From an uncultured bacterium (GTDB lineage: Bacteria; Actinomycetota; Actinomycetes; S36-B12), in NCBI GenBank assembly GCA_963700745.1, contig CAVOYT010000012.1, positions 169,860 through 233,859 on the forward strand: a stretch of 64,000 nucleotides of DNA. The letters run 5' to 3'. This document shows positions 14,310 through 60,876 of this stretch, piece by piece. Position 1 is the first letter of the stretch. The number at the start of each line of letters is the position of its first letter. The translations under genes and the position numbers were made by a program. The notes below the pieces were generated by a model. It searched no databases. It saw nothing but the letters and a program-made list of their open reading frames with translations, and was not told the DNA's origin.

Positions 14310-14416
14310 GGTCAACGGTATACGCCGCGAGGAGATCGCCGCGCCGCCCGGCGTTCGCCCTCAGACGAAGGCGGCCCGCCACGCTGCACCTCGGCGGCCA
14401 CGTGGCGCGGACACAG

Positions 14417-14450
14417 GACGAGGGGGCGACCTCGCGGTCGCCCCCTCGTC
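14417..14450 (-). terminator. Strong hairpin downstream of the DUF5679 gene
   Basis: Perfect 15-bp stem gacgagggggcgacc / ggtcgccccctcgtc with the 4-nt loop tcgc. No clear U-tract. Confidence 0.55.
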
Positions 14451-14504
14451 GTGCGCTCTAGGCGCGAGGTTGCGTCAACCCCGGCGGTACCGGGGTCGGG
14501 CTGG

Positions 14505-14660
14505 TTAGGCCTTGCCCAGAATGCGGGTCACCTTGGTGCCGCACACGGGGCAGATGCCCTTGGCGAAGCGGCGGCCGTTCGTCTCCTCGACGTGGCCGGT
14601 GAACTCCCGCTTCTCCTTGCACTTCACGCAGTACGCCTCGCCGGTGTAGCTCTCGGCCAT
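14505..14660 (-). CDS. DUF5679-type zinc-ribbon small protein (51 aa)
   Basis: Below the track cutoff. My translation is MAESYTGEAYCVKCKEKREFTGHVEETNGRRFAKGICPVCGTKVTRILGKA (CxxC...CxxC). AGGAGGG RBS upstream. Confidence 0.8.
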   Translation of the reverse strand: MAESYTGEAYCVKCKEKREFTGHVEETNGRRFAKGICPVCGTKVTRILGKA

Positions 14661-14844
14661 GGGGCCCTCCTGTATGTCCGTCAGTACCGCGTGGCCGCGG
14701 TCGGCGGCTGTGTGCCACCTAGGGGTTGCCCCCGATTGGTCGGCTCAACGATAGGGCAGCCACGAGGGCCATTCCAGCCACGCGCAACGTCAGATCACCG
14801 CGTGGCGTGATTCATCCTGTGGATAATTACGGATATATGGGATA

Positions 14845-15597
14845 TTACGGTACTTTTCGGTAGCACCAGGTTCGCGGCGATTCCGTCCTCCCACGAGGCG
14901 CCGTCGGCAGCGACCGCACCGTCCGGGGCCCGCACAGCTCGGCCGCCCGCTCCTGAGCACGACACGACCCGGGGTAGTCGTCGTAGAGCGCGGACCACAG
15001 GATCCACGCCGTGACCTGCCATCGCGGCCGGCTCGAGCACCGCACGGTGATCGGCGGCGCGAGCGCCCGGCGGCCGTCCTCGGCGGACGAGCAGTGCCGC
15101 AGGGCGCGCGTGGTTCGCCGGGCGCATGCGGTCGAACGAGGTGCGTCAAGGTGCACCAGCGTCGCCGGCGCCGGCCCGTCGGTACCGCACCGCGACCGCG
15201 CCGCACACGTACTGGTTCGGGCGGCAGCGACGAAGGAACGCGCCTCGATGCGGATCGGATCCTCGATGATGCCCGCCATCGGAGGTGTTGACGCCGACCG
15301 CGGTCCACACGTCAAGGAGGCCGCAGCGATCCTGGGCGAACTCGATCGGCGTTGACGTCCATCGGGACCAGCGCCGTCTCGGTGACCTCGAAGGTGTGCG
15401 GCTCCGTGCACGGCACCGGCGCCGGTATCCGCCCAGTAGTCGTCGCCGGCCTGCTCGTCCGTCAGGTCGTAGCACTCGCCCACGATCGGACGCGCTCGAC
15501 TGGCCTCGCCGGGACGCGCGAGGCACGGGCAGGCCGGTACGAACGGGGTGCGGCAGAACGGCGGCCGCGGCGAGAGATCACCAGCCGCTCGTCGCAT
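14845..15597 (-). pseudogene. Septum-formation family protein (two Cys-containing repeats), heavily frame-broken as sequenced
   Basis: Stitching three frames gives IVGECYDLTDEQAGDDYWADTGAGAVPCTEPHTFEVTETALVPMDVN..FAQDRCGLLDVWTAVGVNTS..IEDPIRIEARSFVAA and a second unit ITVRCSSRPRWQVTAWILWSALYDDYPG..AQERAAELCGP...SWEDG..RTWCYRKVP. The start and exact joins are uncertain. Confidence 0.5.
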
Positions 15598-15720
15598 GCC
15601 GCCTCCAGCCTCGGATCGCACGACCCGGGCCCGCCCCGGGTCCGCCAACCATGATGGCCCCCGTCTGGCCCGGAAGGGGATCAAACGGGAGGATGCGCCT
15701 GTGACGCACCCCGAGCGGCG

Positions 15721-16996
15721 ATGTTCCCGCGTGCAGTCCCCTCGATGCCGTCAGCCTCGACGAGGACGCCCTCCTCGCGGACCTGCTCGACCTGCTGCGC
15801 ATCCCCTCGGTCAGCGGCAGCCCGGCCGAGCTCGAGGTGCAGGAGCACCTCGCCGGGCAGTGGCGCGCGCGAGGGCCTCGACGTCGACCGGTGGGACATC
15901 GACGTCGAGGCGCTCGAGCAGGACCCGGAGTTCCCCGGCATGGAGGTGCCCCGCAGCGCCGCTGTCGGCGTGACCGCCACGCTCGCCGGCGACGGCTCCG
16001 GTCCGACGCTCATGCTCAACGGCCACACCGACGTGGTCCCGCCGGGCGATCGCGCATGCCTGGTCCGGCGACCCGTTCGTGCCGCGCTCGGTGACGGTCG
16101 ACGGCCAGGAGCGCATCGTCGCGCGCGGTGCGTGCGACATGAAGGCCGGCGTCGCGGCGATGTGGTCCGCGGTTCGCGCCGTGAAGACGTCCGGAATCCC
16201 GCTGCGCGGCAACGTCATCCTGGCCGCGGTGTCCGGCGAGGAGGACGGCGGCCTCGGCACGTTCGCGCTGCTGCGCCACGGCGTGACCGCCGACATGTGC
16301 GTCGTGCCGGAGCCGACGTCGATGGACCTCATCCCCGCGAACGGCGGCGCGCTGACCTTCCGGCTCACCGTCCGCGGCCTGGCCACCCATGCCGCCCGCC
16401 GCACCGAGGGCGTCAGCGCCATCGAGAAGTTCTACCCGGTCCTCCAGGCGCTGCAGGAGCTCGAGCGACGCCGCAACGCCGACGGTCGACGTCGTGATGC
16501 AGCGCTGGCCGCTGGCCTACCCGCTGTCCATCGGCACTATCGCCGCCGGCGACTGGGCCTCGACGGTGCCCGACCTGCTGACCGCCGAGGGCCGGCTTGG
16601 GGTCGCGCTCGGCGAGACGATGGCTGCAGGCCCGGGCCGAGCTCGAGGCCACGGTCGCCGCCGCGTGCGCGGCCGATCCGTGGCTCGCCGACCATCCGGT
16701 CGAGGTGACCTGGTGGGGCGGCCAGTTCGCGTCCGGGCAGACGCCACCCGACTCGCCGATCATCGGCCTCGTCGCCGGCATCCAGCGCGATCTCGTCGGA
16801 CGGGAGCCCGGAGATCTACGGCGGACCGTACGGCTCCGACCTGCGGCTGCTCATGGGCCTCGGCGGCATCCCGACCGTGCAGTACGGCCCCGGCGACGCC
16901 GCGGCGGCCCATGCCCCCGACGAGTGGGTGGCCGTCGACGAGGTGCTCACGACCGCACGGGGCCTCGTCCGGCTGATCCTGCGGGTCTGCGCCTGA
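15721..16996 (+). pseudogene. M20 family metallopeptidase (ArgE/DapE/ACY1-like), frame broken as sequenced (at least 5 changes)
   Basis: LLDLLRIPSVSGSPAELEVQEHL, LMLNGHTDVVPPGD, ARGACDMKAGVAAMWSAVRAV...AAVSGEEDGGLGT, GGQFASGQTPPDSPII and YGGPYGSDLRLLMGLGGIPTVQYGPGDAAAAHAPDEWV are spread over ORFs 15721.., 16079.., 16389.. and 16597... Confidence 0.75.
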
Positions 16997-23367: not shown

Positions 23368-24123
23368 ATGATCACCACGATCGGAATCTCGGATCGCGAT
23401 CTGCAGCCTCATCCTCGACGTGGTCGATCGCAGTCGCTGCGGCCAGGCCGGCGAGCATGTCCCCGACTCCCTGCTCCGCGACCTCGGTCACCTCATCGAC
23501 TACGACGATGCGACCTTTCAGGTGATGGACCCCTACCGGCGCAGCATCTCGGTCCAGGACAGCGTCATTGACCGTCGGCAACGACCAGTCGGACGACGAG
23601 GTACTGGACCTGTGGTGGCCGGCGTTCTGGGAGCACTGCGCCTACCCGCAGCTCACCGGCGACTACGCCAGCGTGATCCGCGCGTCCGACGCGCTGCCCG
23701 GCCGGACCGATGGGCGCAATTGGCACGCCTACCTCGAAGCAGAGCCCGATGCCTCGGCGCACCACGTCATCGTCTCGCTGCCCGCCGATCGGGCCGACGG
23801 ATCGCCGTCTCATCCTCTGGCGCGACTCCGGACCCGACTTCAGCGACCGCGACGTCCAGCTCCTCACGCTGCTGCGCCCGCACCTGATCGACGTGTACGA
23901 CCGGCACCAGGAGGAGCGGGCCGGGGCTCCGCAGCTGACGCTGCGGCAGTGGGAGATCCTGCGACTGGTCGCGGCCGGGCTCACCAACGGGCAGATCGGG
24001 CGCCGACTCTCGGTCTCGGAGGCCACGGTGCGCAAGCACCTCGAGAACACCTACGCCCGACTCGGCGTCACCAACCGCACCGCCGCCGTCGATCGCACGC
24101 GCAGGTACCTGCTCGCCGGCTGA
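23368..24123 (+). pseudogene. LuxR-family transcriptional regulator (N-terminal sensor-like domain plus C-terminal HTH), frame broken as sequenced (about 3 changes)
   Basis: C-terminal HTH LTLRQWEILRLVAAGLTNGQIGRRLSVSEATVRKHLENTYARLGVTNRTAAV. N-terminal pieces lie in ORFs 23368.., 23420.., 23568.. and 23710... Confidence 0.75.
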
Positions 24124-24135: not shown

Positions 24136-27100
24136 TCAGGCAGGCGGTACGGCGTCCTCGACCCGTTGCGCCTCGTCCAGCACGACGGCCACGAGGTCGT
24201 GCGCGGGCAGCCCAGTCGGCGGCGGCGCCCTCGAGGGCGCGGCACTCGGTCTCCAGCCGCACTGCACCGAACACTGCAGCGTGGGACTTCAGCGTGTGCG
24301 CCGACCGGCGCAGGAGCTCGGCGTCGCCGGTGTCCGCCCCTGACTCGATTCGGCCGCGACGATTCCCGGGAGCCCGTCCAGGAATGCATCCACCAGCTCG
24401 CGCTCGAAGTCGGGATCCACGCTCCCGACCATGTCCGCGACCCGTTGCCGGAACGCGGCGGCGCTCACCACCTCGCCCGCGGCCGGTGGCGTGGTCGGCG
24501 TAGCGGGGAGGGCGACCACCGTCTTCGGCGCTGCCTCCGCGAGCAGGTCGGCCGTCTCGGCGAGGGCGGCCGCCAGTTCGTCGCGGCGCAGCGGTTTCGC
24601 GAGATAGCCGTCCATGCCGGCGGCCGCGGTGCTGACCCGGTCCTCGCTCAGGGCGTTGGCCGTCAATGCCACGATCCGCGGCCGAGCGTCGCCCATCTCC
24701 GCGATGATGCGCCGGGTCGCCTCAAGGCCGTCGACCTCGGGCATCTGGACGTCCATGAGGATGAGGTCGAACAGGCCGGTCACCGCCTGCTCCACCGCCT
24801 CCCGTCCATCGTTGGCGACCGTGACGGAATGCCCCATGCGGGTGAGCAGGGTGACTGCCAGACGCTGATTGAGGGCGTTGTCCTCGGCGAGCAGGATGGC
24901 AAGGGGCCGTGCCCGAGTCTCCCCGACCACCTCATCCTTCGGGTCGTGCCCGAAGGTCGGGGCGTCCTCGATCCCCAGGCCGCGCACGACGGCCCCTGCG
25001 AGCGCATCGGGCTTGACGGGCTTGGTCACCCACTCGACGAACCCCAGATCACGCCAGCGCGGGTCAGCCATGACGTCTCGTCTCGGATAGGCGGACGTGA
25101 CCAGGACCGCAGCGGAGGACGACCGCCGCAATGACGCGAGGTAGGTGACGGCATCGTCCGCGTCCTGAGTACCGCAGCCGATCAGCACGACGTCCGCGTC
25201 CGTTCCACCGGGGGCATCCGCGACCGAGGCCACGGCTTCGACCTCGGCCCCCCAGGAGCCCAAAAGGCGCGCCAGCACACCGCGCTGCAGTTCGCTCGGC
25301 TCCACGAGCAGCACCCGTCGACCCGAAAGGAACGGTTCCGGCGCGGGTGGCGCAGCCGCCGGCAGCACGGGACAGCGTCAGCGACGAACGTGCTTCCTTG
25401 GCCGTCGTACCCGGGGCTCTGCACCTGGACGTCGCCGCCCATGAGCTCCGCGAGGCGCTTGCTGATAGCCAGTCCCAGCCCAGTGCCGCCGTACTTGCGC
25501 GAGGTCGACAGGTCCGCCTGGCTGAAGGACTGGAAGAGGCGGCCCACCTGCTCATCGGAGAGGCCGATGCCGGTGTCGGTCACCGCCACGGTGATCCGCT
25601 GACGGCCGCCATCGGGTCCGGTCTCAGCCGCCTCGACCGAGAGCCGCACGTGACCGGCCTCGGTGAACTTCACCGCGTTGCCGAGCAGGTTCAGCAGGAT
25701 CTGGCGCATCCGGTTGGGGTCTCCCACGATCCGCTCAGGGACAGTGACCGGCATGTCGTAGGCGAGGTCCAGCCCCTTGCGCGTGGCAAGCGGTCCCATC
25801 AGATCGAGGGCCGACTCGATGCACTGCCGCAGGGAGAACTCGACGCTCTCGAGGTCCATGCGTCCGGCCTCGATCTTGGAGAAGTCGAGGATGTCGTTGA
25901 TGATCGCCAGCAGGGCCTCGCCGCTGCCCTGGATGATGCCGGCGTACTCACGCTGCTCGATGTCCAGATCGGTGTCGGAGAGCAGGCCGCTCATCCCGAT
26001 GATGGCGTTCATCGGCGTCCGGATCTCGTGGCTCATGGTGGCCAGGAAGCTGCTCTTCGCCTCGTTCGCGCGGTCCGCCTCGAGTCGGGCCGCCTGCAGC
26101 TCGGTGATGTCGTGATACACGACGTACGAGCCGACCGTCCGGCCGTCGACGACCAGCGGGACCATGACGATCTCGACGTCGACCACGGAACCGTCCTTGC
26201 GCGAACGCTGGGTGATGAGGTCATGGCGTCCGGCCTCGAGCGACGCCCGGGCCACGGCCGCCCCCTCGGCCCGCATCTCGTCCGAGCCCAGCACGAGGTC
26301 GTCGATCGACCGACCGATCGCCTCGTCGGGGGCGTACCCGAACAGGGTCGTCGCCGCGGGGTTCCAGCCCGTCACGTGCTGGTCGAGATCCATCGTGACG
26401 ACGGCTGCGGGACTGATCTCGACGAGCGCCTCGAAGTAGGTCTTCTGGGTGGCGAGCTCGGCCGTGCGCTCGTCGACCCGACGCTCGAGAGTCTCGACGT
26501 TCTCCCTTAACTGCGCGGTCATGCCGTTGAAGGTCTCGGCGAGCACGCCCACCTCGTCGTGAGTGCGCACGGGCGCGGTCTTCGTGAGGTCGCCCGCTCG
26601 TACCGCGATGGCCGTCTCGGTGATCGAGAGGATCGGACCAGCGATGCGGCGGGAGGCGACGTAGATGAGAATGCCCATGAGCAGCACGACGACGATTCCG
26701 ATCAGGGCGATCGACGTCGCCAGCTGACTGGCCGGCGCGAAGGCCTGCTCCTGCGTGATCTCCGACACCATCGCCACGCCGATGTCCTCGATCCAGGCAT
26801 ACGAGCCGATGACGGGTACCCCGGCATAGTCGACGTACAGGCCACGTCCGCTCTGCTGCTGAAGTCCCTGGTCGATGGCCGCAGAACGGACGGCGCCGTT
26901 CTCCTCACCCAGCTGCGCATGGACGAACTCGTGATCCGAATCGACCAGGTAGCTCTGACCGCCGTCGCCCAGGCCCGTCTTCTGCAGCACGATGCGATCG
27001 ACGCGGGCCAGGTCGAGGTTCGCAGCGAGAACGCCGCGCAACAGGCCGTCGGCGTCGAACAACGGCGTCGAGACGATGATTGCGGGGCCGTCCGACAGCT

Positions 27101-27593
27101 CCGACCGGGCCACAGGACGGGTGAACTGCCCCGACTGCCCGCGCGTGAAGTACTCCTCGCCGCTCTGGTCGAGGCCCTCGTGCCCGGGAGTCGTCGAGGC
27201 CACGATGGTGCCGTTCTCGTCGAGTACGAACAGCTCAGCTGCGTCAGCCGTCTGCCGCACGATGTACTGGAGAAGCTGGCGCATGTCTTCACGGGCCACG
27301 ACCTTCACCTGGGCGTCCGACTCCGGATCCAGCAGCTGAGCGACCACGTCGGTCTTCGCACCCGTCGACGTCTGCTGCTGGACGCCGCCGAGCAGTCCCG
27401 CGGCGAACGTGAGGTTGCGTCGCTGCTCCTCGATCCAGCGGACGATCGACTGGCTCGTGAGCACCTGCGCGGCGTCGAGCCGGCCGTACACCGACTCCTC
27501 CAGCGAGTCTCGGGCGCGCTGCGTCGCCAGGACCGCGACCAGGCCGACCATGACGATGGACAGGACGAGGAAGGTCAGCACCAGCTTGGCCAT
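24136..27593 (-). pseudogene. Hybrid sensor histidine kinase: TM, large extracytoplasmic domain, TM, HAMP, PAS, HisKA, HATPase_c, REC-like, REC, HPt. Frame broken at ~25370 and ~24200-24310
   Basis: MAKLVLTFLVLSIVMVGLVAVLA (ATG 27593); TM2 LATSIALIGIVVVLLMGILIYVA; FLATMSHEIRTPMNAIIGM; GTGLGLAISKRLAELMGG. REC in ORF 24289..25368: ILLAEDNALNQRL...DLILMDVQMPEVDG...LTANA. HPt: LLRRSAHTLKSHAAVFGA. The core 25400-27593 is uninterrupted. Confidence 0.85.
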
Positions 27594-27676
27594 CAGGCTG
27601 CGCCCGCGCTTCACCCGGACGACGCTCGGCGTCGTCGATCTCAGGGGACCGGGTCCCGCGCTCCTCGTCGCCACGA

Positions 27677-28651
27677 CTACTCGACCGTCTGCCCGATCGA
27701 GCTCATGTCGAACTGGGCAGCCGCCGCCGCGTAGTCCCTGCCGAAGTACTGCTCGGACAGCCCGGCCAGCGTCCCGTCCGCGTGCAGGGAGTCGACGACC
27801 TCGTTGATGGCACGACGAACGCCGCCGAGTAAGGCCGGACTCCGGTCCACGTATCCGGTCTGTAGGCTGGTAGGCCGGCGGTCCGGCGCCATGCGGCAGG
27901 CCAGACGCTGTCGATCTCGCCGACTCCGACGGGCTCGGCGCGACAGGAACCGTCGATCTTCCCGTCGGCCACCGCCTCCAGCCCGGGAATCTCGTTCTCG
28001 TAGGTCTTGATCGCGGATCGACGACGGCCCTCGTGGTGACGGCGCCAGGAAGCGACGAGCGTTCCGCGCAGGTAGGCCCCATGGGTGCATCCCGTGCAGG
28101 CACCGACCGTCGTCCCGGACAGCTCCGCCAGGTGCTGGAACGGCGAATCCTCGCGGACGAAGAACCGGGAGGGCGTCAGCCCGGTACGGCTGCGTCATCC
28201 ACAGCCGTGTCATGCGGTCGTCGGTGATGTTCCCCGACCCCCAGGAGATGTCCCAGCGATCGCCCCAGCCGCCCGAGATGATCTCGGACCACTCTGCGGC
28301 GAGAAGCAGGGCTCAACGCCCAGTCCGTCCGCCACGGCCTTGCCCGTGTCCGCGTCCTAGCCCGACACCTCGGCAGCGGTGAGCTCCGTGTCGGCGCACT
28401 TGGTGCTCGGCGTGCGCGTCGCGCCCTCCACCGCCATCGACTGTGGTGGGTACTCCAGGTCGGTCGACAGCACGAGGGTGCCCCGGGCCAGCACCTGCGC
28501 CAGCTTGTCCGTATTGGGATCACCCGCCGCGGCCGTGCTGCCGCCGGGGCCGAGCGGACTGACCGACCCGATCCGTCGCGCCACCGCACGCAGCCAACGC
28601 CAGAGCAAGAACGAGACGCCCCCAGTCGAGAGCAGACCCGGCCATCAGCAT
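27677..28651 (-). pseudogene. Family-3 solute-binding lipoprotein, paralog A; frame changes plus an in-frame TAG at 28357-28359
   Basis: Lipobox LVLALALAACGG, then GDPNTDKLAQVLARGTLVLSTDLEYPPQSMAVEG...AAEVSG*DADTGKAVADGLGVEPCF, WGDRWDISWGSGNITDDRMTRLWMTQPY, and the C-terminus INEVVDSLHADGTLAGLSEQYFGRDY. Paralog B has Y where A has the TAG. Confidence 0.75.
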
Positions 28652-28681
28652 GTCGATCTCCTCTATTGAGTGTCTGCCCGA

Positions 28682-29657
28682 TCAGGCCAGGTCGAAATTG
28701 CCGGCGTTGGTGGCGTAGTCGATCCCGAAGTACTTCTCGGACAGGGACTTGAACGTTCCGTCGGCGTGCAGTCTGCCATCAGGATCTCGTTGATGCGCTG
28801 ACGAAGGCCTCGTCTCCAGACCGGAGTTCTTGTCGACGAAGCCCGTTAACATTCCGGTGAAGAGCGGCGGATCCAGGGCGCGAAGCGGCACGCCCGACGC
28901 GATCGCCTCCAGCCCCACTCGCTCGGAGCCGACAGAAGGCGTCGATCTTCCCGTCCCCAACGGCCTCGAGTCCCGGGCCCTCCACGTCGAACAGGACGAC
29001 TTCGGGATCCTTGATCAGGTTGTCGAACGCGATGCCCGGCAAGGCTGAGTTCGCGCGGAGGTAGGCCTCGTCCGAGCATCCCGCGCACGCGCCGACGTTC
29101 TTGCCCGACAGCTCCGACGGATCCGGTAGGGGGAGTCCTCGCGCACGAAGAACCGGGACGGCTCGGCCCTGTACGGCTGGGTCATCCACAGTCGGGACAT
29201 GCGGTCCTCGTTGATGTTGCCCGTGCCCCACGACACGTCCCATCGGTCACCCCACGTACCGGAGACGATCTGCGTCCACGAAGGGGTGACGAAGCACGGT
29301 TCCAGCCCAATGCGGTCGGCGACCATCTGTGCCGGTCTCCACGTCATAGCCGGTCAGCTCAGGAGCGGTGAGTTGCGTCGCCAGGCACTTGGTGGGAGAC
29401 GCTCGCGTCGCACCCTCCACGGCCATCGATGGATGCGGCGGGTACGCCAGGTCGGTGGAGAGCACCAGGGTCCCGCGCGCCAGAACCTGCGCCAGCTTGT
29501 CCGTGTTGGGATCACCCTACCGCGGGGCTGCGCGCCGACCGCGTCCGCGATGCTCGAGCCCTCCGACGGAGCCCCCGCTCCCGCACGCCGACAGGGCCAG
29601 GTCCGGAAGCAGGATGAGGGCGACGACACGCGGGAGCGTGGATGGGCAGCACTTCAT
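28682..29657 (-). pseudogene. Family-3 solute-binding lipoprotein, paralog B; frame broken as sequenced
   Basis: MKCCPSTLPRVVALILLPDLALSACGSGG, GDPNTDKLAQVLARGTLVLSTDLAYPP...LTGYDVETG, MVADRIGLEPCFVTPSWTQIVSGTWGDRWDVSWGTGNINEDRMSRLWMTQPY, and the C-terminus HADGTFKSLSEKYFGIDY. Confidence 0.75.
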
Positions 29658-29662
29658 GTGCT

Positions 29663-30752
29663 CTATCGACTCCTTCCGGATCGAGGGTCCACAGACGAAC
29701 CGTGCCGGTGCGTCCGCGAGGTGCGACTTCGTCCACGAACGCCCAGCCGTCAGCCGGATCGGTCAGGTGGTCGATAACCCGCTGCGTGACGAGCAGCGAG
29801 ACTCCGTGCTCCTTGGTCATCGACTCGACCCGCGCGGCGGTGTTGGTCGTGTCTCCGATGACGGTGTACTCGAGCCGACGGTCCGACCCGACGTTGCCCG
29901 ACATCACCGGCCCGGAGTTGATGCCGATGCCCATTCGGAAGTCGTGGTCCAGGCCCTGATCAGGGAGCCACGCGTTGAGCGAGGCCAGGCGTGTCTCGAT
30001 CATCTCCCTGGCGGCAGCAACGGCTCGGTCGGCATGGTCGGCGGCCTCGATCGGCGCTCCGAACACGCTCATCATCCCGTCGCCGAGATAGGCCACCAGG
30101 GTTCCGCCGTGGTCGAGCACGGCATCGCTCATCAGGCCCAGGTAGTGGTTCAGCACGTCGATGACGATCTCCGGCGACTGCGTCTCCGCGAAGGTCGTGA
30201 AACCACGTAGATCGTTGAACATCACCGTGGCCGTCAGGCCGCGGGCGCCGATGCGCGGTTCGCCGTCGGCCATCACCTCATCGACGATCGACTCGGGAAC
30301 GAATCGCGTGAACACCTCTCGCAGGTGGCGCCTCTGCAGGTCGTGAAGCCGCTTCTTGTTCAGGCCGGCGTTGACGCGGGCTCTCAGGATGGCGGCATCG
30401 GCAGGCTTCGGCAGGAAGTCGTCCGCGCCGAGTTCGATGCAGCGCAGGATGCCGTCCTGGTCCTCCAGCGACGAGATCATCACGACCGGCGTGTGTGACA
30501 CGTCCGGCAGGTCTTTCATGGCCACGAGGACGCCGAACCCGTCCAGTTCCGGCATGAGGACATCCAGGAGCATCACGTCGGGCTGCTCGGCGACGAGGAC
30601 GTCCAGGGCCTGCCTGCCGTCGGCGGCTTCGAGGGTCCGATGCCCCTCCGAGGCAGGGCACGGACGAGCAGCCGTCGGTTCAGCGGATCATCGTCGACGA
30701 CGAGAATCGTCGCCTCGTGGACCCGTCCCCCGCTTCGTTCGACATGCGCCAT
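29663..30752 (-). pseudogene. Response-regulator receiver fused to a class III adenylate/guanylate cyclase domain; one frame change in REC (~30650); 3' end uncertain
   Basis: ILVVDDDPLNRRLLVRAL (ORF 30573..30776), then DVMLLDVLMPELDGFGVLVAMK...FLPKP and the cyclase core ATVMFNDLRGFTTFAE...VAYLGDGMMSVFGAP...IGINSGPVMSGNVGS..RLEYTVIGDTTNTAARVES (ORF 29512..30576). The track frame runs on to 29512 across the next gene's start. An alternative TAG at 29663-29665 needs one indel. Confidence 0.8.
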
Positions 30753-30846
30753 TCCTGACTCGACGCGCACAACCACGTGGCTACCGCGGCCATGTACGCA
30801 AGTATGCGGCGGAACGGCGTTCGCGGACTAGCGAAATTCCGGAGCT

Positions 30847-32488
30847 TCAGCCGCCGTGTCGCCGGTCCCGCTCGAGGTGCGCCTGCGAGACCTCCTCGGC
30901 CACGGCTCGCCCATCGGTTCCGCCGGTGACGGCGGCCAGGAAGTCCTCGCCGGCGATGACAAGCAGCCGGCCGTCGGTGACGGCCGTGATCGTGGCGTTG
31001 CGGCGAGTCGCCCTCAGCAGGGCGAGCTCGCCGAACCCCTCGCCCGGCCCCAGCAGGCCGGGCCGGGCCGCACCATCGATGATCACTGTGAAGTCGCCCT
31101 CTCCGATGACGTAGAACAGGTCCCCGAGGTCGCCTTGACGCACGACGTCGGTTCCGGCGGCGACGTCCACCCAGGCGGCGGAGCGGGCCAGCCGCTCGAG
31201 CTCATACGGCGGCAGCGCCGAGAGGAACCCGACCCTCCTCAGGAGTGCGATCTCGTTCGTGACAAGGACGGCGCGCGCATCCAGCCGGCGCACGAAGAAG
31301 TAGCCAGCCGTCACGACCACCCCCAGGCCCAGCCCGAGGGGGATGAAGGCACCAGCCGGACCCCACCGATTGACCAAGGCGGGGGCAACGGCCGCTCCGA
31401 GCGCCACGCCAAGGAGGGCGACGGCCTCCTGCACGGCGAACACCTTGGCCAGGACGCGGTCCTCGACCGTGCGCTGGAGAACCGTGCGGCCGGCGACGAG
31501 CATGATCGCCCCGCCGAAACCGCACAGCGCCAGCATCACCACAGCAGGCGCGAGCGCCGACACGAGCGCGACCATCGCGAAGGCGAGGCCCTGGAGAACC
31601 CCATTCACCGCGACGACCGGCGCCAGGCGGTCTCGCAGGGAGGCTGACCCCGCCACGAGCGCGCCCGGCCATCCCTCCGATGCCGAGCGCACCGATGACC
31701 AGCCCCGCGCCGGACTCGCCGATATCGAGCACGGACTGGGCGAACGAGACGCCGAGCACGTCGATCGCACCGCCGATCACGAACCTGGTCGTCAGCACGA
31801 GCAGCACCACGAGCACGGCCCAGTTGCGCCAGAGCGTGGAGACCCCCTCGAGCGCCACCCGCCACCCGGCCGCGCCCCCCTCGGGCGTCACGATCGACCG
31901 GCCGATATCGAGGCGCAGGCACAGGAGCGTCGCCACGACCCCAGCGACCGTGGCCCCGACGAACACCATCCCCGGCCCCACGGCCTGGACGCCGAGTCCC
32001 GCGATGATCGGACCGACGAAGAAGGCCAGGCCCTCTCCGAGCGAAGACAGGGAATTGGCCGCGACCAGTTCGTCCGGCCCGCCTGCCAGACGTGGCAGGA
32101 CGGCGTAGTGAAGCGGCCTGACGACGGCGAGCGCCACGGTCGCGAGTGCTGAGAAGAACACGACGACGGGCACGGGGGCGGACATGAGCAGCGCAGCCGC
32201 GGTGAGCAGCGTCGCTGCCGTCACCGCACCGTGCGACAAGGCGAGCGCCGTCCCACGGGGCAGGCGCTCGAGCACCCCGACGATCGCCGGGGAGAGGGCG
32301 GCCGCGGGCAGCATCTGCACCACCGCCACGAGGCTCGTCAGCGCCACGCCACCTTCCGCGTAGGCGTACAGGACGATCGTCACCCAGATCGTCAGTTCGA
32401 TCAGGTCGTAGATCGAGTAGGCGACCAGCACTCGTCGCATGGGCCCGTCACCCGCGATGGCCCGCACGCGCGTGGCCAGGGAGCTCAC
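30847..32488 (-). pseudogene. MFS-type transporter fused to a C-terminal cyclic-nucleotide-binding domain, paralog 1; one frame change (~31665)
   Basis: N-terminal TM region in ORF 31202..32488. C-terminus in ORF 30847..31770 with LRRVGFLSALPPYELERLA...QGDLGDLFYVIGEGDF...GEGFGELALLRATRRNATITA. The GTG start overlaps the upstream stop (GTGA at 32485-32488). Confidence 0.8.
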
Positions 32489-34106
32489 TGCCGCCGTCGA
32501 TTTTGGAGGGACAGCTCACGAGCCCTCGCCTCGCCGTCGGGACTCCCCGTGACTGCGGCCAGGAAGTCCTCCGACTCGAGTGCAAGGAGGCGGCCGGAGG
32601 TGCGGGCCGTCACGCTCGCGGTCCTGGGCACGGACCACAGGAGGGCGATCTCGCCGAAGCCCTCCCCGCGCACGAGGGGTTCGGTCAGGGCGACGCCATC
32701 GATGGAGACGGTGAACTCGCCCTGCTCGATCACGTAGTAGCGATCGCCCGGATCCCCCTGCCGGATCACCTCAAGCCCTGCGGGAACGTCCACCCACGTC
32801 GCGCCGCGGGCCAACTGCTCGAGCTCGTACCGGGGCAGCTGCGCCAGGAAGTTGACCGAGCCGAGCAGCGCGGTCTCCTCCGGGAACATGACGGCCCGCG
32901 CGTCGAGGCGTCGTAGGAGTCCGTAGACGGCGATCACCATGAGCGACACACCCAGGCCCAGCGGGACGAACGCCCCGGCCGGGGAGAACTGCAGCACGAG
33001 GATCGGGGCGAGGGCCGCACCGAGCGAGAGGCCGAGCAGCGAGACCCCTCCTGAACGGCGAAGACGCGGGCCAGCACGCGGGCGTCGGAGGTGCGCTGAA
33101 GCAGGGTTCGCCCGGCGACCATCATCACGGCGGAGGCGACGCCCGACAGCGCCAGCAGGATCAGCGCCGGAGCGATGAGGACGGTCAGGGCCACGGCCGC
33201 GAACGCCAGCCCCTGCAGGATTCCGCTCGCTCCGATGACCGGTGCCAGGCGTCGGCGGATGGACGCGGAACCGGAGACCAGGCCCCCGAGGAGCCCACCG
33301 ATGCCGACCGCCCCGATGACGAATCCCGCGCCGGCCTCACCCATCCCGAGCACCTGCTCGGAGTACGACACCCCCAGCACGTCGAGAGCCCCGTTGAGCA
33401 CGAACCTGGTGGCCAGGACGAGGAGCAGGGCGAAGGCACCCCAATTCCGCCACAGCACCGCCAGGCCGCCGATCGCGGCACGCCAGCCCGAGTCATCCTC
33501 GTCCGATGCCACCGGCGGACCCAGCGACAGTCGCAGGCAGAGCAGGGCCGCGACGATCGTGGCGACGCTCGATATCGAGAAGACCAGCCAGGGGCCGGCC
33601 ACCTGGGCGCCCAGCCCAGCCAGGATGGGGCCGAGGAACAGCGACAGACCCTCGGCAGCGGATGACAGGGCGTTGGCAGACACCAGTTCCCGGGGACTGT
33701 GCGCCAGCTGGGGCAGCGCGGCGAAGTGCAGCGGCCGCACCACCGCGATCGCTGTGGTCGCCAGCACCGACGCGAGGATGACCACCGCCACCGGCGCCGA
33801 CGCGAGCAGGGCCACCGTGGTGAGCGCCGTCGTTGCAGCGACTCCCGACTGGGCGAGGACCAGCGCCGTTCCGCGTGACATCCGGTCGCCGAATCCGGCG
33901 AGCGCCGGGCCGATGAACGCCGCGGGCAGCAGCTGGACCACCGCCACCACCCCGGCGAGCGTCGTGCCGCCCTCGGCGTAGGCGTACAGGATGATGGCGA
34001 CCCAGATGGCGACCTCGACCATGCTGTACATGGCGTAGGCGATCATGACGCGCCGCAGGGCGCTTCCCGAGGTCAGCGCGCTGAAAGTGGAGGGCCCAGA
34101 ACTCAT
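32485..34106 (-). pseudogene. MFS-type transporter fused to a C-terminal cyclic-nucleotide-binding domain, paralog 2; one frame change (~33050)
   Basis: TM region in ORF 32934..34106. cNMP domain in ORF 32485..32997: FLAQLPRYELEQLA...QGDPGDRYYVIEQGEF...GEGFGEIALLWSVPRTASVTA. Confidence 0.8.
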
Positions 34107-34178: not shown

Positions 34179-36269
34179 TCAGCCGTGCTCGCGCACGAGA
34201 GCAAGGAGCGGGTCCCCATAGGCCGCGAGTTTCATCGGCCCGATTCCCGGGATCTCCGCCAGCGCGTCCTCATCTGTCGGCTGCTGCTCGGCGATCGCGA
34301 TCAGCGTGTTGTCGGTGAACACGACGTAGGCAGGCACCGCCTTCTCGCGCGACGTCGATGATCGCCACTCGCGCAGGGCCTCCAGCAGCCCCTCGTTGAG
34401 ATCCGCCGGGCATGAGCGGCAGCGTCCCAGGGTGCGTTCCGGTGCCGTGACCAGCGCCTTGCGGCACACCCGGCAGCGACCGGGGCCCTTGCGTCGACGC
34501 TCGCCGCGGGCCTTGCCCGAGCCGCGCTGCGTGACTCCTGCGGTGAGCGCGTCCCCGACAGTGCGGGAACCGGCCAGCGCCTCCGCGAGGAAGGGGCTCA
34601 CCGACCGGACCGCCCTGCCGCCAGGCTGGCGAGCCCGTGCCCAGGACAGGTGCAGGTGGTCCGCCGCGCGCGTGATCGCGACGTAGGCCAGCCGTCGCTC
34701 CTCCTCCAGCTGTGCGGGTGTCTCGGCATACTGGAGCGGCAGCAGGCCGTCGCTGCATCCCACGACCAGGACGACCCGCCACTCCAGGCCCTTGGCCGAG
34801 TGCACCGACGCCAGTGTGACGCCATCGGCCACCGGGGCATGCTGCAGTTCAGCGCGGGCATCCAGCTCCGCCACGAAGCCCGACAGCGAGTCCTCGAGGG
34901 ACTCGGCCAGTTCGTCCGCGAGGGTGGCCAGGGCCGCGAGCGACTCCCACCGCTCGCGCACGGCGCCCGCAGTGCGGGGTGCTTCGGGGGTCCACCCCGC
35001 CGTGCCCAGGACGGCGCGCACCTCCTCGCCGAGGGCGCCGCCACCGGACTCGCCCCGCGCGGCGCCCCGCAGCCGGGTGACGGCCTCGCGAACCTCGGGG
35101 CGATTGAAGAAGCGCTCGGTGCCGCGCAGCATCACCGGCACGCCCGCCTCGGCGAATGCCTCCTCCAGCGCGGCCGACTGGGCGTTGATCCGGAACAGCA
35201 CCGCGATGTCCCGGGCCGGGATGCCGTCCTTGATGTGCTGCACGACGCGACGGGCAACCTGGTCGGCCTCCTCGACGTCGTCGGGCCAGACCTCGACCGT
35301 CGGCTCGGGGCCGGCGTCGCGCTGGGAGCGGAGCACGAGCGCCTGGGATGCGTTCTCGCTGGCACGGGCGATCACCGCGTTCGCGAGCGTGACGATCTGC
35401 GGCGTGCAGCGGTAGCAGCGGACCAGCCGCACCTCCGTGGCGTCGGGGTACGCGGTGCGGAAGGACGTCAGGTACGCGGGCGTCGCGCCGGTGAACGAGT
35501 AGATGGTCTGGTTGGCGTCTCCGACGACGCACAGGTCGTCGCGCTCGCCGAGCCACAGGCCCAGCAGCCGGTGCTGCAGCGGATTGACGTCCTGGTACTC
35601 GTCGACGGTGAACCACCGGTACGCGGAGCGGACTTCGTCCGCGATGTCGGGCCGCTCCGCCAGCGCCCCCGCAGTGACGAGCAGCACGTCCTCGAAGTCC
35701 AGCAGGCCCCGGGTGGTCTTGGCGTCCTCGTAGGCAGCCTGCACCTGGGCGACGGCTGCGGCATCGACCGCAAGGTTCCTGGACACTGCCGTCGCGCGCT
35801 CGCCGATCGCCGCGCCGGTCAGGAAGTTGACCTTGGCCCACTCGAGGTCGGCGGAGAGGTCGCGAACGGTCGCGGTGTCTGTCGGCAGTTTGCAGCGGCT
35901 GGCGGCCTCGGCAACCAACCGGGCCTTGCTGGGCAGCAGTTCGGGGAACTCACCGCCGCTGAGCCGGGGCCAGAAGAAGCGCAACTGGCGCAGGGCGGCG
36001 GCATGGAAGGTGCGCACCTGGACCCCCTCGACGCCGAGGACGCGCAGGCGCGAGCGCATCTCCCCAGCGGCCCGGGTGGTGAAGGTGACGGCGAGGGTAC
36101 GCCGCGGATCGTGCTCGCCGGTGGCTGAGCCGTGCGCGATGCGGTGCGTGATCGCGCGGGTCTTGCCGGTACCGGCGCCAGCGAGAACCACGACCGGACC
36201 GTGCAGGGCCTCGGCCACCGCGCGCTGCTCATCGTCGAGCCCTGCCAGGGCGTCGCCGGACGCGCTCAT
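34179..36269 (-). CDS. uvrD2: ATP-dependent DNA helicase UvrD2 (UvrD/PcrA core, tetra-Cys module, HRDC)
   Basis: Intact 696 aa. VLAGAGTGKTRAITHRIA, VDEYQDVNPLQ, CRVCRKALVTAPERTLGRCRSCP, and the HRDC-like tail AYVVFTDNTLIAIAEQQP. Adjacent to mycoredoxin and nudC, as in the Mtb Rv3198c locus. Confidence 0.9.
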   Translation of the reverse strand: MSASGDALAGLDDEQRAVAEALHGPVVVLAGAGTGKTRAITHRIAHGSATGEHDPRRTLAVTFTTRAAGEMRSRLRVLGVEGVQVRTFHAAALRQLRFFWPRLSGGEFPELLPSKARLVAEAASRCKLPTDTATVRDLSADLEWAKVNFLTGAAIGERATAVSRNLAVDAAAVAQVQAAYEDAKTTRGLLDFEDVLLVTAGALAERPDIADEVRSAYRWFTVDEYQDVNPLQHRLLGLWLGERDDLCVVGDANQTIYSFTGATPAYLTSFRTAYPDATEVRLVRCYRCTPQIVTLANAVIARASENASQALVLRSQRDAGPEPTVEVWPDDVEEADQVARRVVQHIKDGIPARDIAVLFRINAQSAALEEAFAEAGVPVMLRGTERFFNRPEVREAVTRLRGAARGESGGGALGEEVRAVLGTAGWTPEAPRTAGAVRERWESLAALATLADELAESLEDSLSGFVAELDARAELQHAPVADGVTLASVHSAKGLEWRVVLVVGCSDGLLPLQYAETPAQLEEERRLAYVAITRAADHLHLSWARARQPGGRAVRSVSPFLAEALAGSRTVGDALTAGVTQRGSGKARGERRRKGPGRCRVCRKALVTAPERTLGRCRSCPADLNEGLLEALREWRSSTSREKAVPAYVVFTDNTLIAIAEQQPTDEDALAEIPGIGPMKLAAYGDPLLALVREHG

Positions 36270-36381
36270 GCGGCCGTCACTCCCCGGGTCCACATGAGGC
36301 GATGCTTGCACGGCCCCCTGACCACGCGCCGCCCGGGAGGCTCGACGGGCGACTGCCCCGAGGTGCGGATACCGTGAGCCA

Positions 36382-36633
36382 GTGAGCACTGCGACTGACG
36401 TGACGATGTACAGCACCGTGTGGTGCGGGTACTGCGCGCGACTCAAGGCCCAGATGACCCGTGAGGGCATCGCCTTCACGGAGGTCGACATCGAGACTGA
36501 CCCCGAGGCGGCGACCATCGTCGAGGATGTCAACCACGGCAATCAGACCGTCCCAACGCTGATGTTCCCCGACGGCTCCTTCGCGACGAACCCGTCGATC
36601 GGCCAGGTCAAGGCCCACCTCGGCCTGACCTGA
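36382..36633 (+). CDS. Mycoredoxin/glutaredoxin-like protein (Rv3198A-like)
   Basis: VTMYSTVWCGYCARLKAQMTREGIAFTEVDIE...TVPTLMFPDGS, with a CGYC active site. Confidence 0.9.
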   Translation: MSTATDVTMYSTVWCGYCARLKAQMTREGIAFTEVDIETDPEAATIVEDVNHGNQTVPTLMFPDGSFATNPSIGQVKAHLGLT

Positions 36634-39061: not shown

Positions 39062-42000
39062 CTACTGGGCGAGCAGGCGGGCGAGCTCGGCGGTCGGTGT
39101 CCGGGCGCAGGACCTCACCGGTGCCGACGATGACGAACGCCGCGACCGACCTGCTCCACCGGGACGCCCATGCGACCGGGCCCAGGCCAGTCGGTAGATC
39201 GCCAGCTGCATGGCGTCGACGTGCTCGCCCGAGCCGGTCTTCCAGTCGATGACGTCGTATGCCGCCACGCTGCCCGGATCGGCCTCGAACACCGCGTCGA
39301 TCCGCCCGTTGACCACCCGGCCGCCGACGAGCAGAGCGAACGGCGCCTCCACCGCCACCGGCACGCGGTGCGCGTACGGCCCGCCCTCGAACGCGGCCTT
39401 CAGTTGCAGCAGGGCCTCGTCGCTGGCGATGTCGGCGTCCGCCGAGCCGGGCAGGTCGTCCGGGTCGATCAGCGACTGCTGGCCGTAGCGGGTCTCGACC
39501 CACGCGTGGAACTCGGTGCCGCGACGCGCCGCCGGGGCCGGCGGCCTGCGGCATGGGCCGGGCGATCTCCAGCGCGACCGCATCAGGGTCGTCCAGCGCT
39601 CGCATCAGCAGGCTCGCCGAGACCGAGTCGGGAAGGCGCACCTGCCGGGTCGCGGGCGTGTCGGGCCCGCGCCTCCTCCAGGAGGGCCGCCGTCAGCACG
39701 TCCCACTCCTGGACCCGCTCGCGGTCCGCCGCCGGTCTGCGCCGGCCGTCGGTCCGGCGTCGACCCCGGGCAGGGCTGGCTGCATCTCGGACACGCGCGC
39801 ACCGCCGTCGGCGACCTCGCGCAGGCGCGACGCGCGTGCTGCGGGTCCGGAGCCGGCGGCCACGCCAGCGGCACCGACGCCTCCCGCACCTGCGGGATTG
39901 GCGGCGTCCTCGTCGGGCTCTGGCGCCCAGTGCACGACCTCGCCGAAGCCGTCGAGGCACGCCTGGTGCACGGTCGACAGGAAGGCGTCCGGCCCGCGGC
40001 GGGTCGACTGCGTGGGACCCCACCAGTGACCCGACACGGCGAGGCCCCGCTCGGCGCGGGTGAAGGCGACGTAGGCGAGTCGCTGGTTCTCCAGGCCGTT
40101 CAGCTCACGCAGCACCTCCTTGTAGGCCTCGTGATGCTTGGCGCGCGGGGTCTCCCCGGCGACCGGGAACGAGGCCAGGTCCGGGGTGCAGTCATCGCGC
40201 AGCGGCCACGGCACCGAGCTCGCGCTGGTCGGCCATGAGGGTCGGCCGCGGCCACCGGGGAAGGCGCCCGACGAGACGAAGGGCACGAACACGTAGCCGA
40301 ACTCCAGCCCCTTGGCCTTGTGGACGGTGAGCAGCTGCACCGCGTCGGCCGGACCGGAGACGTCGAGCTCGAGGTCGACGTCGAAACGCTCCGCGTCGCG
40401 CAGCCGAGCCAGGAAAGCCCCCAGGGTCAGCCGGCCGTCGAGCTCGTTGAACTCCGCAGCCACGTCGAGGAAGGCATGGAGGGCGTGCTGCTGCGCCGAC
40501 CCGGCCGACCCCAGGGCGGCCTCGACCTCCAGGCCGGTGGTGCGCATGACCCGAAGGACCAGCTCGGCGAGCGGCTCGCCCACGTGGCCCTGCAGGCGGC
40601 GCAGCTCGCGGGCGAACTCCGTGAACCGCGTCACGGCCTCTGGCGAGTAGCGGTCGAGGTCGCCGAGGTCGTCCAGGGCCTCGGTCAGGGAGATCGACTC
40701 GACGACATCGGTACCCGCGACGGCGTCGTCGAGCGCCGACCCGATGTCCTCCTGGCCGGATCGATGGCGTCCGCCGGCCAGGTGTGCCGCGCGGTCGCCC
40801 AGTGCCGCGAGGTCGCGTGCGCCGATCCGCCAGCGGGGACCAGCGGCCAGGCGCACGAAGGCCGGGTTGGCCGACGGGTCGTGGAGGATCTCGAGCATGC
40901 TGCGCAGGTCGATCGACGGCCGGCTGCGCCATCAGCGCCGCAGCGCCGATCAGCTGAGTGGGAATCCCGCGTCGTCGCAGGGCCGCATCGACGGCCACCA
41001 GGTCCGCGCCGGTCGCCGCGAGGATCGCGATGTCGCTCCAGCGAATCCTCGGCTGGCCGGGCCGCGCGGCGTGGGTGGCCACGATCTGCTCCACCACCCA
41101 GTCGACCTCCTGCGCGTACGTCTCGAACAGGGCGCACGACACCGACCCGGAACCCTTGCCGTTGTCCCCCGCGCTCAAGCGGCTCCACGCCGGCGTGGAC
41201 GGTGCGCAGGTGCGCCGACGTGCGGTTGGCGACCTCGAGGATGCTCGGCCCCGAGCGCCGGTTCTGCGACAGCGTGAACCGCGCCGCCATCCGGCCGTCC
41301 CCCTCCGGCGGGAAGTGCCGTGGGAAGTCCTCGATGTTGTCGACGCTCGCGCCGCGCCAGCCGTAGATGGCCTGACACGGGTCTCCGACCGCCATCACCG
41401 GATGGCCGGACGCCGAAGATGCGCTGCAGCAGCACGCGCTGCGCGATCGAGGTGTCCTGGTACTCGTCGAGCAGGACCACGGCATAGCGAGCGCGAAGGT
41501 CATCCACGACGTCCGGGAAGCGGGCCACGAGCTCGCCGGCCAGCCGGATCTGATCGGCGAAGTCGAGCACGTCGCGGTCGGCCTTCTCCGCCCGCCATTC
41601 CTCGACCAGGCTCGCCAGCACGCTGCGCTGGGCCGACGTCGCCATCATCTCGGTGCCGATCTTCTGCGGCGCCCCGAAGGACTGCAGCATGGCGAGCATC
41701 TCGTCGTCGAACGTCCGCAGGTCCGCAGGGCTGACGCCGAGCTCGGTGAGCTCGTCGTCGAGGCTCAGCAGGTCCTTGGTGATGACGAGGGGCGAGCGCC
41801 CGATGTCCGGACAGCGGCAACGTGGACCGGCAGACGACGCGGTAGGCCAGCTGCTGGCGTGCCCCGTCGGTGAGCATCGTCGCCCGCGGCTCGCGACCCA
41901 GCCGGATGCCGTGCTCGGCGAGGATCCGAGCCGAGAAGGCGTGGTAGGTCAGCACCTGGGGCTCGCCGAGCGGGGCGCCGTCAGCGTCCTCGCCGCTGAT

Positions 42001-48536: not shown

Positions 48537-48734
48537 ATGAGCGACGTGACCATCATCCCGACCGAGAACGGCCCCTACGAGGTGTCCGGAGAGGTCAGCA
48601 TCGTGGCCCCCGACGGCACCGTGATCCGCGACACCGCGAAGACCTACCTGTGCCGGTGCGGGCACTCGCGCAACAAGCCGTTCTGCGACAGCAGCCACCG
48701 CCGGGTGAACTGGGTCGCGGACGCGGAGGACTGA
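48537..48734 (+). CDS. CDGSH-type iron-sulfur domain protein
   Basis: YLCRCGHSRNKPFCDSSH fits the C-x-C-x2-S-x3-P-x-C-D-x2-H signature. Intact 65 aa. Confidence 0.85.
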   Translation: MSDVTIIPTENGPYEVSGEVSIVAPDGTVIRDTAKTYLCRCGHSRNKPFCDSSHRRVNWVADAED

Positions 48735-48763
48735 CCCCCTCGACTCCTCGAAGCATCGGGAGG

Positions 48764-48799
48764 CAAGGGCAGAGCCCCGCCTTCCGGCGGGGCCCCTTG
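48764..48799. terminator. Bidirectional hairpin between convergent genes
   Basis: gccccgcc (48774-48781), loop ttcc, ggcggggc (48786-48793), with the outer pairing caaggg / cccttg. Confidence 0.55.
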
Positions 48800-48834
48800 T
48801 CCTCTCCCGGTATTCCGGGGGCGGGAGCCACTTC

Positions 48835-51469: not shown

Positions 51470-51483
51470 GGTTCGCGCAGGTG

Positions 51484-58374: not shown

Positions 58375-58376
58375 CG

Positions 58377-60837: not shown

Positions 60838-60876
60838 GATCGCCTCCTCCGCAGTCCTGATCCGCCCGGGGCCAAG

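Follow-up and report, generated by a model that had tools for sequence, protein, structure and literature searches.

The locus analysed here consists of six consecutive, co-directional genes on the minus strand, at positions 24136-34106 of a 64-kb stretch (the whole of which is called the window) of contig CAVOYT010000012.1; the host is described as a soil actinobacterium, and the G+C content of the window is about 70%. In the direction of transcription, the genes encode two major facilitator superfamily (MFS) transporters, each with a C-terminal cyclic nucleotide monophosphate (cNMP)-binding domain (CNB), a receiver domain (REC) fused to a class III (IIIb-like) nucleotide cyclase, two lipoprotein solute-binding proteins (SBPs) of the SBP_bac_3 family, and a hybrid histidine kinase (HK) that ends in a histidine phosphotransfer (HPt) domain. 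An earlier note on this DNA had proposed these six genes together with their domains, and Pfam searches recovered every one of them in its place. The locus is a variant of known cyclic-nucleotide signalling.

Transporter paralogue A (MFS1, 32485-34106, about 540 residues after repair of the reading frame) starts about 75 nt from the helicase gene that precedes the locus, and its stop codon overlaps the GTG start of paralogue B (MFS2, 30847-32488, about 546 residues after repair), in the GTGA at 32485-32488 that had already been pointed out. A gap of about 100 nt (30746-30846), with AGGAA upstream of the cyclase ATG, separates the transporter pair from the REC-cyclase gene (29654-30745, about 360 residues); a comparable gap of 110 nt is found in the orthologous locus of a related genome (L001), used below as the reference. 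The cyclase, SBP and kinase genes are nearly contiguous, with about 0-10 nt between the cyclase and SBP1 (28663-29657, about 330 residues), about 11 nt between SBP1 and SBP2 (27677-28651, about 320 residues), and 2-83 nt between SBP2 and the kinase (24136-27674, about 1150-1180 residues), the last distance varying with the start codon picked (GTG at 27674 or ATG at 27593). The gap of about 100 nt is a possible site for an internal promoter. A scan for promoters and terminators returned no promoter and three terminator-like sites (2.0 expected), and a tRNA scan and Rfam at the gathering threshold returned nothing across the whole 64 kb.

Both transporters were recognised by Pfam in their raw open reading frames (ORFs), with MFS_1 at 3.5e-19 and cNMP_binding at 4.2e-14 for MFS1, and 5.9e-13 and 2.5e-14, respectively, for MFS2. 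In bits, the cNMP_binding (PF00027) matches scored 52.7 and 53.4 (cut-off 27.5), and MFS_1 reached 69.4. The phosphate-binding cassette reads FGEIALL..PRTASV in paralogue A and FGELALL..RRNATI in paralogue B, in which Arg-Asn replaces Arg-Thr, and the cassette residues F, G, E, A and R are invariant across 96 homologues; the description of the C-termini as cNMP-binding domains with intact-looking cassettes thus holds. The best matches of the CNB domains in the PDB were the CNB domains of PKG and PKA (E values of 1e-26 to 1e-19). An AlphaFold2 model of the MFS2 orthologue P0002 (pLDDT 88.9, pTM 0.82) consists of an MFS fold followed by a CNB domain, and Foldseek superposed about 400 residues of it on transporters with 12 transmembrane helices (12-TM), with target-normalised TM-scores of up to 0.85 (VAChT, VMAT, SotB, NorA). 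Among the 50 matches listed, the closest solved folds were drug/H+ antiporter-type MFS proteins, and none was described as an MFS-CNB fusion. As similarity in NCBIfam to EntS-type exporters and to the 2A0121 family was only sub-threshold, the transporters cannot be assigned to a subfamily or a substrate. The two paralogues are 58% identical to each other, and MFS1 and MFS2 are 72% and 69% identical to MFSa and MFSb of L001, respectively. A literature search found no paper characterising an MFS-CNB protein.

The raw ORF of the cyclase gene matched Response_reg (7e-19, 68.5 bits) and Guanylate_cyc (PF00211; 1.6e-22, 80.5 bits against a cut-off of 21.9), and its product, which is 81% identical to the L001 orthologue, matched the class III cyclases Cya2 (6.5e-32) and CyaB (2.1e-23) in the PDB. 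When aligned to the receiver of PleD, its closest likeness, the receiver domain (PF00072) was found to retain the DD pair, the phospho-acceptor Asp (MLLDVLMP), the Ser and the Lys: the motifs VVDDD, LLD, MISS and LPKP align to the pocket, acceptor, Ser/Thr and Lys positions of PleD, with D53, T83 and K105 among the residues matched. The cyclase domain, compared with CyaB (3R5G), OaPAC and Cya2, retains both metal-binding Asp residues and the Asn and Arg that act on the transition state (FNDLRGFT, YLGDGMM, DTTNTAAR), all of which are invariant in 12 members of the family. At the first substrate-specifying position, Ala (GGTLVAYLGDG) replaces the Lys of CyaB and OaPAC and the Glu of the guanylate cyclase Cya2; the second is occupied by Thr, a hallmark of class IIIb. 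In other members of the family, the residue at the first position is Ala, Ser or Thr. With Lys/Asp or Lys/Thr taken as the pair for ATP, and Glu/Cys, Glu/Ser or Glu/Gly as the pair for GTP, the Ala/Thr combination in this alignment fits neither, so that the product of the cyclase cannot be assigned from the sequence. The REC-cyclase family is large; both domains were present in 120 of the 120 best matches, and no paper characterising an actinobacterial REC-cyclase was found in the literature.

The hybrid kinase is composed, from its N-terminus, of a transmembrane helix, dCache_1, a second transmembrane helix, HAMP, PAS, HisKA, HATPase_c, a pseudo-receiver, a receiver and HPt. Its raw fragments were matched by the Pfam profiles dCache_1 (9.2e-17), HAMP (4.7e-13), PAS (1.6e-13), HisKA (2.3e-22), HATPase_c (1.2e-27), Response_reg (1.6e-29) and Hpt (2.7e-7), the kinase, ATPase, receiver and HPt profiles all being above threshold. 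After repair, a second, degenerate receiver was detected between the ATPase domain and the true receiver (19.3 bits, E value 0.0013), and the motifs SHEIRTPMN, LILMDVQMPEVDG and AHTLKSHAAVFGA became visible. The protein is 74% identical to its L001 orthologue.

The two SBPs gave weak SBP_bac_3 matches as fragments and clear ones after repair of the frames (2.9e-17 and 6.4e-18; 63 and 65 bits), and both carry lipobox-like signals (LALSAC and LALAAC). SBP1 and the only SBP of L001 have 67-68% identity. As the two copies share only 59% of their amino acids and 71% of their DNA sequence, the duplication is old. No ABC_tran or BPD_transp gene is present in the 21.6-kb orthologous locus of L001, so the partner permease and ATPase expected for the SBP of an ABC importer are missing there; the SBPs are orphans and probably sensor-associated. 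In NCBIfam, they showed sub-threshold similarity to polar amino-acid binding proteins.

When the repaired MFS-CNB sequence was used as query, 209 homologues were retrieved, the best 70% identical and almost all with both domains; named sources include Nocardioidaceae, Nanopelagicales, Marmoricola and Longivirga. The earlier note had counted on orthologous loci keeping these genes together, and related metagenome-assembled genomes (MAGs) do so with largely intact genes. In L001/L005, the order is uvrD2-HRDC, MFS-CNB, MFS-CNB, REC-cyclase, SBP and dCache/HK-REC-HPt, after which come a GerE gene in convergent orientation and ABC1, and the same order is kept in L002/L006 up to the end of the contig. 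The backbone (adnB-like helicase, acyltransferase, nudC, glutaredoxin and uvrD2 on one side, ABC1 on the other) is conserved, and the island occupies a variable slot in it. L008 is a variant of this order: it carries an SBP gene, three MFS-CNB genes and a cyclase ORF in which no receiver could be recognised, and it lacks the kinase. Neither L007 nor L044 has the cyclase module; at the uvrD2 site, the former keeps one MFS-CNB gene, and the latter a partial one followed by a GerE gene. In the other genome loci, about 35, MFS-CNB genes stand singly, in tandem or with a divergent paralogue, in unrelated contexts. As a separate observation, the first MFS-CNB gene of L008 (10001-17267; MAG MFD09779.bin.1.366) is 95% identical to that of L001/L005 (MAG MFD09779.bin.1.334, from the same sample) and its neighbours are 66-83% identical, which suggests either that the gene was exchanged recently or that the assembly or bin is chimeric.

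The cyclase-SBP-kinase module is an independent, widespread unit. A locus with 71% identity (L047) contains the REC-cyclase, SBP_bac_3 and dCache hybrid kinase genes in this order and lacks MFS-CNB; L048, with a 66%-identical cyclase, has the order SulP-STAS, REC-cyclase, hybrid kinase; and L049 the order CNB, MFS-CNB, PAS hybrid kinase, REC-cyclase. The REC-cyclase is followed by a hybrid kinase with six GAF domains in L054, L050 and L053, lies between the HPt end of a kinase and an SBP in L052, has a divergent kinase beside it in L055, and adjoins an upstream kinase in L063. Counted over the ten family loci with enough flanking sequence (L005, L047, L048, L049, L050, L052, L053, L054, L055 and L063), a hybrid HK/HPt gene adjoins the REC-cyclase in all ten, and the sensor part of the kinase varies from dCache plus SBP to PAS, six GAF domains, or none. 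An SBP beside the cyclase recurs in L005, L008, L047, L051 and L052. In L048 (6373-12082), the gene directly upstream of the REC-cyclase encodes the SulP-STAS transporter in place of MFS-CNB, so that a transporter adjoins the kinase/cyclase pair there too.

As an HK/HPt gene always adjoins the cyclase, and as no second receiver protein besides the kinase and the cyclase is encoded within the 21.6-kb L001 locus, gene context strongly supports a relay in which the HPt domain of the kinase would feed the receiver of the cyclase. This step had been part of the circuit proposed in the earlier note, and the ten loci back it.

With moderate confidence, we read the locus as a chromosomal cNMP signalling locus made of two adjacent modules, most likely intact in the organism, in which the adjacent cyclase would be the likeliest dedicated source of ligand for the transporters. 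The first module would be a translationally coupled operon in which the REC-cyclase gene is followed by that of the SBP, present here in two copies, and by that of the hybrid kinase. At least one of the two lipoprotein SBPs would capture a ligand outside the cell, probably a small polar molecule, and signal to the dCache/HAMP/PAS kinase, from whose His the phosphate would pass to the Asp of its own receiver, to the His of the HPt domain and finally to the Asp of the REC-cyclase, whose phosphorylation would alter the cyclase activity. The second module is an old pair of paralogous DHA/EntS-like 12-TM MFS transporters, each with a C-terminal canonical PKA/PKG-type CNB domain, on which the bound cNMP may tune transport allosterically. 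In this lineage, the adjacent cyclase would most likely be the dedicated source of the ligand of these domains.

When the flanks (up to 10 kb on each side) of 42 MFS-CNB genome loci were searched with cyclase hidden Markov models, a cyclase was found in 6 of the 42, in each case as the immediate or near-immediate neighbour of the MFS-CNB gene: a REC-cyclase in L005, L006 and L008, and a convergent Zn-ribbon-cyclase-AAA_16-TPR protein in L015, L031 and L032. Searches seeded with cyclases added L049 and L059, the latter with the order CNB protein, MFS with two CNB domains, USP and CHASE2-cyclase, so that four unrelated cyclase architectures lie beside MFS-CNB genes, in different lineages. As the count is only marginally over the baseline, the association was read from the position of the cyclases and the diversity of their architectures. 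We read the association as real but facultative, and functional coupling as plausible.

Several points weigh against the interpretation. The six cyclases compare with 2.4 expected from the mycobacterial density of 16 cyclases per genome (PMC1183210), which gives P of about 0.04, uncorrected for shared ancestry among lineages that are not independent, and 36 of the 42 MFS-CNB loci have no cyclase nearby. The cyclase-SBP-HK module of L047 does without MFS-CNB, and L004, which shares the ENA analysis accession ERZ25039488 with L047, has three MFS-CNB genes without an adjoining cyclase; in L007 and L044, the cyclase module is absent and MFS-CNB still stands at the uvrD2 site. The 100-nt gap suggests that the transporters may be transcribed separately from the cyclase module. 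The Ala in place of the Lys of the ATP pair would make both the activity and the product of the cyclase uncertain. In a 2023 review, MFS-CNB fusions figure as catalogued and not as characterised proteins (PMC10710835). The state of the SBP genes, described with the frame disruptions below, belongs with these points.

Alternatively, the two modules may be functionally independent neighbours, the HK/SBP/REC-cyclase set adding to a cell-wide cNMP pool with many effectors and the MFS-CNB pair reading that pool, fed by any cyclase of the genome. Their adjacency would then come only from the insertion of the cyclase module at a permissive site between uvrD2 and ABC1. The modules are indeed found apart (L047, L007, L044), most MFS-CNB loci lack a nearby cyclase, the two sets are separated by the 100-nt gap, the site varies in close relatives (single, partial or three MFS genes, with or without HK), and Actinobacteria have many cyclases, such as the 16 of M. 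tuberculosis (PMC1183210). Against independence, the cyclases found directly beside MFS-CNB genes are of four unrelated architectures and come from different lineages, any cyclase present in the flanks is always an immediate or near-immediate neighbour, and the gene order is maintained between genomes in spite of a protein identity of only 69-81%. We consider independence of the modules possible but rather unlikely. Of the single closed circuit that had been proposed at the outset, running from the extracellular ligand to the transporters, the kinase-to-cyclase step is backed by gene context, but the modules are separable (L047; L007 and L044; a cyclase in 6 of the 42 loci) and the closed form is only partly supported.

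A bolder version of the coupled reading is that the cyclase family, with Ala, Ser or Thr in place of the purine-selecting Lys or Glu, makes a nucleotide besides or instead of cAMP, which would directly gate a dedicated MFS pair. We regard this version as improbable. If it were true, the locus would be a compact circuit that senses outside and switches a transporter without a transcription step, and it would provide the first demonstrated cNMP-gated secondary transporter.

As the earlier note had warned, every gene of the island carries at least one frame disruption, and this was borne out by frameshift-aware alignment. The indels were mapped with a protein-to-DNA aligner of our own that permits 1-nt frameshifts, with the intact L001 orthologues as reference, and the counts, over 16 genes, were taken solely from this orthologue-guided alignment; a simple codon-model segmentation also suggested window-wide frame switching, and adjacent genes and frameshifts are not separable by it. 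In total, 47 one-base indels were found in 20,651 nt of aligned coding sequence, 24 of them in the island (9.7 kb; 2.5 per kb) and 23 in the flanks (11.0 kb; 2.1 per kb). Within the island, MFS1 has one 1-nt deletion (around 33044, in a G run), MFS2 one 1-nt insertion (around 31666), the cyclase two 1-nt deletions (30718 and 30656), the kinase 6 indels, and SBP1 and SBP2 at least 7 indels and one in-frame TAG each, that of SBP2 at the position of a Tyr codon. The cyclase probably stops at 29663 or 29654, and the ORF as sequenced continues to 29515. As the database protein P0121, encoded on an NCBI/ENA contig of 467,727 bp, is 100% identical to this truncated and over-extended ORF, the disruptions reside in the public assembly.

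In the flanks, the AdnB-like UvrD/PDDEXK helicase-nuclease gene (39068-41747, minus strand) has 11 one-base indels and no in-frame stop at 88% identity to its orthologue, and 8 of the indels are clustered in its last 0.85 kb; this is the clearest sign that such clusters are technical. ABC1/UbiB has 2 indels at 95% identity, the GerE regulator 3, a 316-residue protein 3 and the acyltransferase 2, and UvrD2, NudC and glutaredoxin have none. The disrupted flank genes are thus as well conserved as the intact ones (95% for ABC1 and 88% for the AdnB-like gene, compared to 87% for UvrD2). Similar damage is present in related assemblies, where ABC1 is broken up in both L008 and L044, and the kinase of L001 is divided into two ORFs. 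Because conserved flank genes are equally hit and only two in-frame stops were found, the frame disruptions are most likely assembly or sequencing errors and would not reflect decay specific to the island.

The alternative, that the island, or at least both SBP genes, is a genuinely decaying pseudogene cluster, draws on the disruption of every island gene and on the absence of the kinase and of the receiver part of the cyclase from the relative L008. It also draws on the SBPs, which have 7 indels each in less than 1 kb, about fourfold the 1.8 per kb or so found elsewhere, and account for both in-frame stops in the set of 16 genes. However, the indel density of the flanks equals that of the island, the AdnB-like gene has a cluster of similar size in a well-conserved sequence, and ABC1 remains highly conserved despite its two indels. 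Decay of bacterial genes is expected to consist mainly of substitutions, and here 47 indels stand against 2 nonsense changes; moreover, the coding signal in the G+C of third codon positions (GC3) is maintained in every frame segment. Decay is therefore highly improbable, with a reservation for the SBP genes on account of their indel density and stops, and the earlier worry that the genes might be dead finds its answer in indels that are equally dense in conserved neighbours. Two candidate sources of the errors were rejected. A methylation-motif artefact was not significant, as 10 of the 47 indels lay within 6 nt of a GATC (12.6% expected, P = 0.066), and mis-assembly of a recent SBP tandem duplication was ruled out by the 71% DNA identity of the copies. 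The frame disruptions of this assembly are not to be taken as biology.

Two further stretches of the window have no clean coding frame. In one (48730-51484, by the codon model), a truncated GGDEF domain was detected at 50029-50580 on the minus strand (Pfam 3.5e-26, model positions 1-105 of 161), and the stretch is probably another frameshifted signalling gene. The other (14181-15738) spans about 1.5 kb, and neither of its two longest ORFs had a Pfam match.

A likeness to Pycsar defence, in which a PycC cyclase and a CNB-TIR or CNB-TM (transmembrane) effector cause abortive infection (PMC11224242), had also been raised. Applied to this locus, it would mean that a phage triggers the production of a cyclic pyrimidine by the cyclase, and that the CNB-membrane proteins kill or arrest the cell. 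The cyclase domain is matched by PADLOC PycC profiles (best 5.9e-26, 89 bits) and the CNB domains by PycTIR profiles (about 1e-8), and Pycsar loci have the same arrangement, with a cyclase next to a membrane protein that carries a CNB domain (PMC11224242). PycC, however, shares the class III motifs by definition (PMC11224242), and its score is comparable to, and no better than, that of the generic Guanylate_cyc profile (80.5 bits); the PycTIR match is limited to the CNB part of the model, and the PKG/PKA CNB domains match far better (1e-26 compared to 9e-7). The putative effectors are full MFS transporters of about 545 residues that superpose on 12-TM folds, not CNB domains fused to TIR or to a small pore-forming transmembrane module. 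In addition, the cyclase is under receiver control, with a kinase as its partner in all ten loci examined, the locus is inherited with the conserved adnB-nudC-uvrD2/ABC1 backbone of housekeeping genes, and the base pocket is lined by small residues (Ala/Thr), whereas a clade D PycC uses the bulky F60, K104 and F109 for UTP (PMC11224242). The likeness comes down to generic class III and CNB homology, and we give next to no credence to a defence function.

Among known systems, the SBP-dependent sensor kinases LuxP-LuxQ and TorT-TorS, and BvgS with its fused family-3 domains, resemble the input side of the locus. As in LuxP-LuxQ and TorT-TorS, an orphan binding-protein gene adjoins that of a membrane sensor kinase, with no ABC permease or ATPase in the orthologous locus; in contrast to them, the family-3 SBP is here a lipoprotein in a Gram-positive-type envelope, and the kinase has a dCache domain of its own, so that ligand sensing may be direct, via the SBP, or both. 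On the output side, the MloK1 and SthK channels are likewise membrane transport proteins with a C-terminal canonical CNB domain, whose ligand binding controls solute flux in the channels and may do so here, and the MloK1 CNB structures match the CNB domains of the transporters at about 1e-9 to 1e-10; those are, however, tetrameric ion channels, whereas the proteins studied here are secondary-active MFS carriers. To our knowledge, direct control of a secondary-active transporter by a cNMP has been predicted from domain fusions and not demonstrated. The M. tuberculosis proteins Rv3239c and Rv3728 are MFS/cNMP-binding membrane proteins. They share with the proteins of the locus the combination of MFS and C-terminal CNB in Actinobacteria, as do the MFS-CNBD fusions catalogued by Willson et al. 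2019 (as summarised in PMC10710835), the two Rv proteins being likened by description only. Compared with these (again by description for the Rv proteins), the transporters of the locus are of about 545 residues, have no extra esterase domain, form an old tandem pair of paralogues and, in this clade, adjoin a cyclase module.

The closest precedent for the cyclase step is CyaC of Anabaena and Spirulina, a class III adenylate cyclase activated by His-Asp phosphotransfer, according to Kasahara & Ohmori 1999 as cited in PMC1183210. In CyaC, as here, a receiver directly controls a class III-fold cyclase, and PleD offers the parallel of a response regulator in which a receiver is joined to an enzyme; the IIIb-like cyclase domain with Thr at the second specificity position is shared with CyaC, CyaB and OaPAC. 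Unlike in CyaC, the kinase and the cyclase are here separate proteins, the hybrid kinase has its own receiver and HPt domain, for a relay of four steps, sensing involves a dCache domain together with a partner SBP, and the substrate-defining Lys is replaced by Ala.

Upstream of the island, the intact gene of a UvrD2-type helicase with an HRDC domain (34179-36542, minus strand, Pfam), which anchors the backbone and lies outside the signalling system, is 87% identical to its L001 orthologue, with no frameshift. Downstream, a convergent LuxR/GerE-type regulator (23368-24123, plus strand, 3 indels), 83% identical to its L001 orthologue and 250 residues long in relatives, matched only GerE in Pfam; no receiver domain was found in it, and its first 180 residues or so have no Pfam match. 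The regulator gene (17390-18139 in L001) accompanies the island in L001 and L008, yet L044, without a cyclase module, has it as well. Farther away in the window, at 57763-60876 on the minus strand, an intact gene encodes a 1038-residue protein in which the catalytic and C-terminal domains of a wax-ester synthase/DGAT are fused to a patatin-like phospholipase.

The analysis defines a populous REC-cyclase family, always partnered with a hybrid HK/HPt, in which the base-specifying residues are non-canonical. Together with its intact orthologues (L001/L005, L049 and L059), the locus provides candidate cognate pairs of cyclase and effector.

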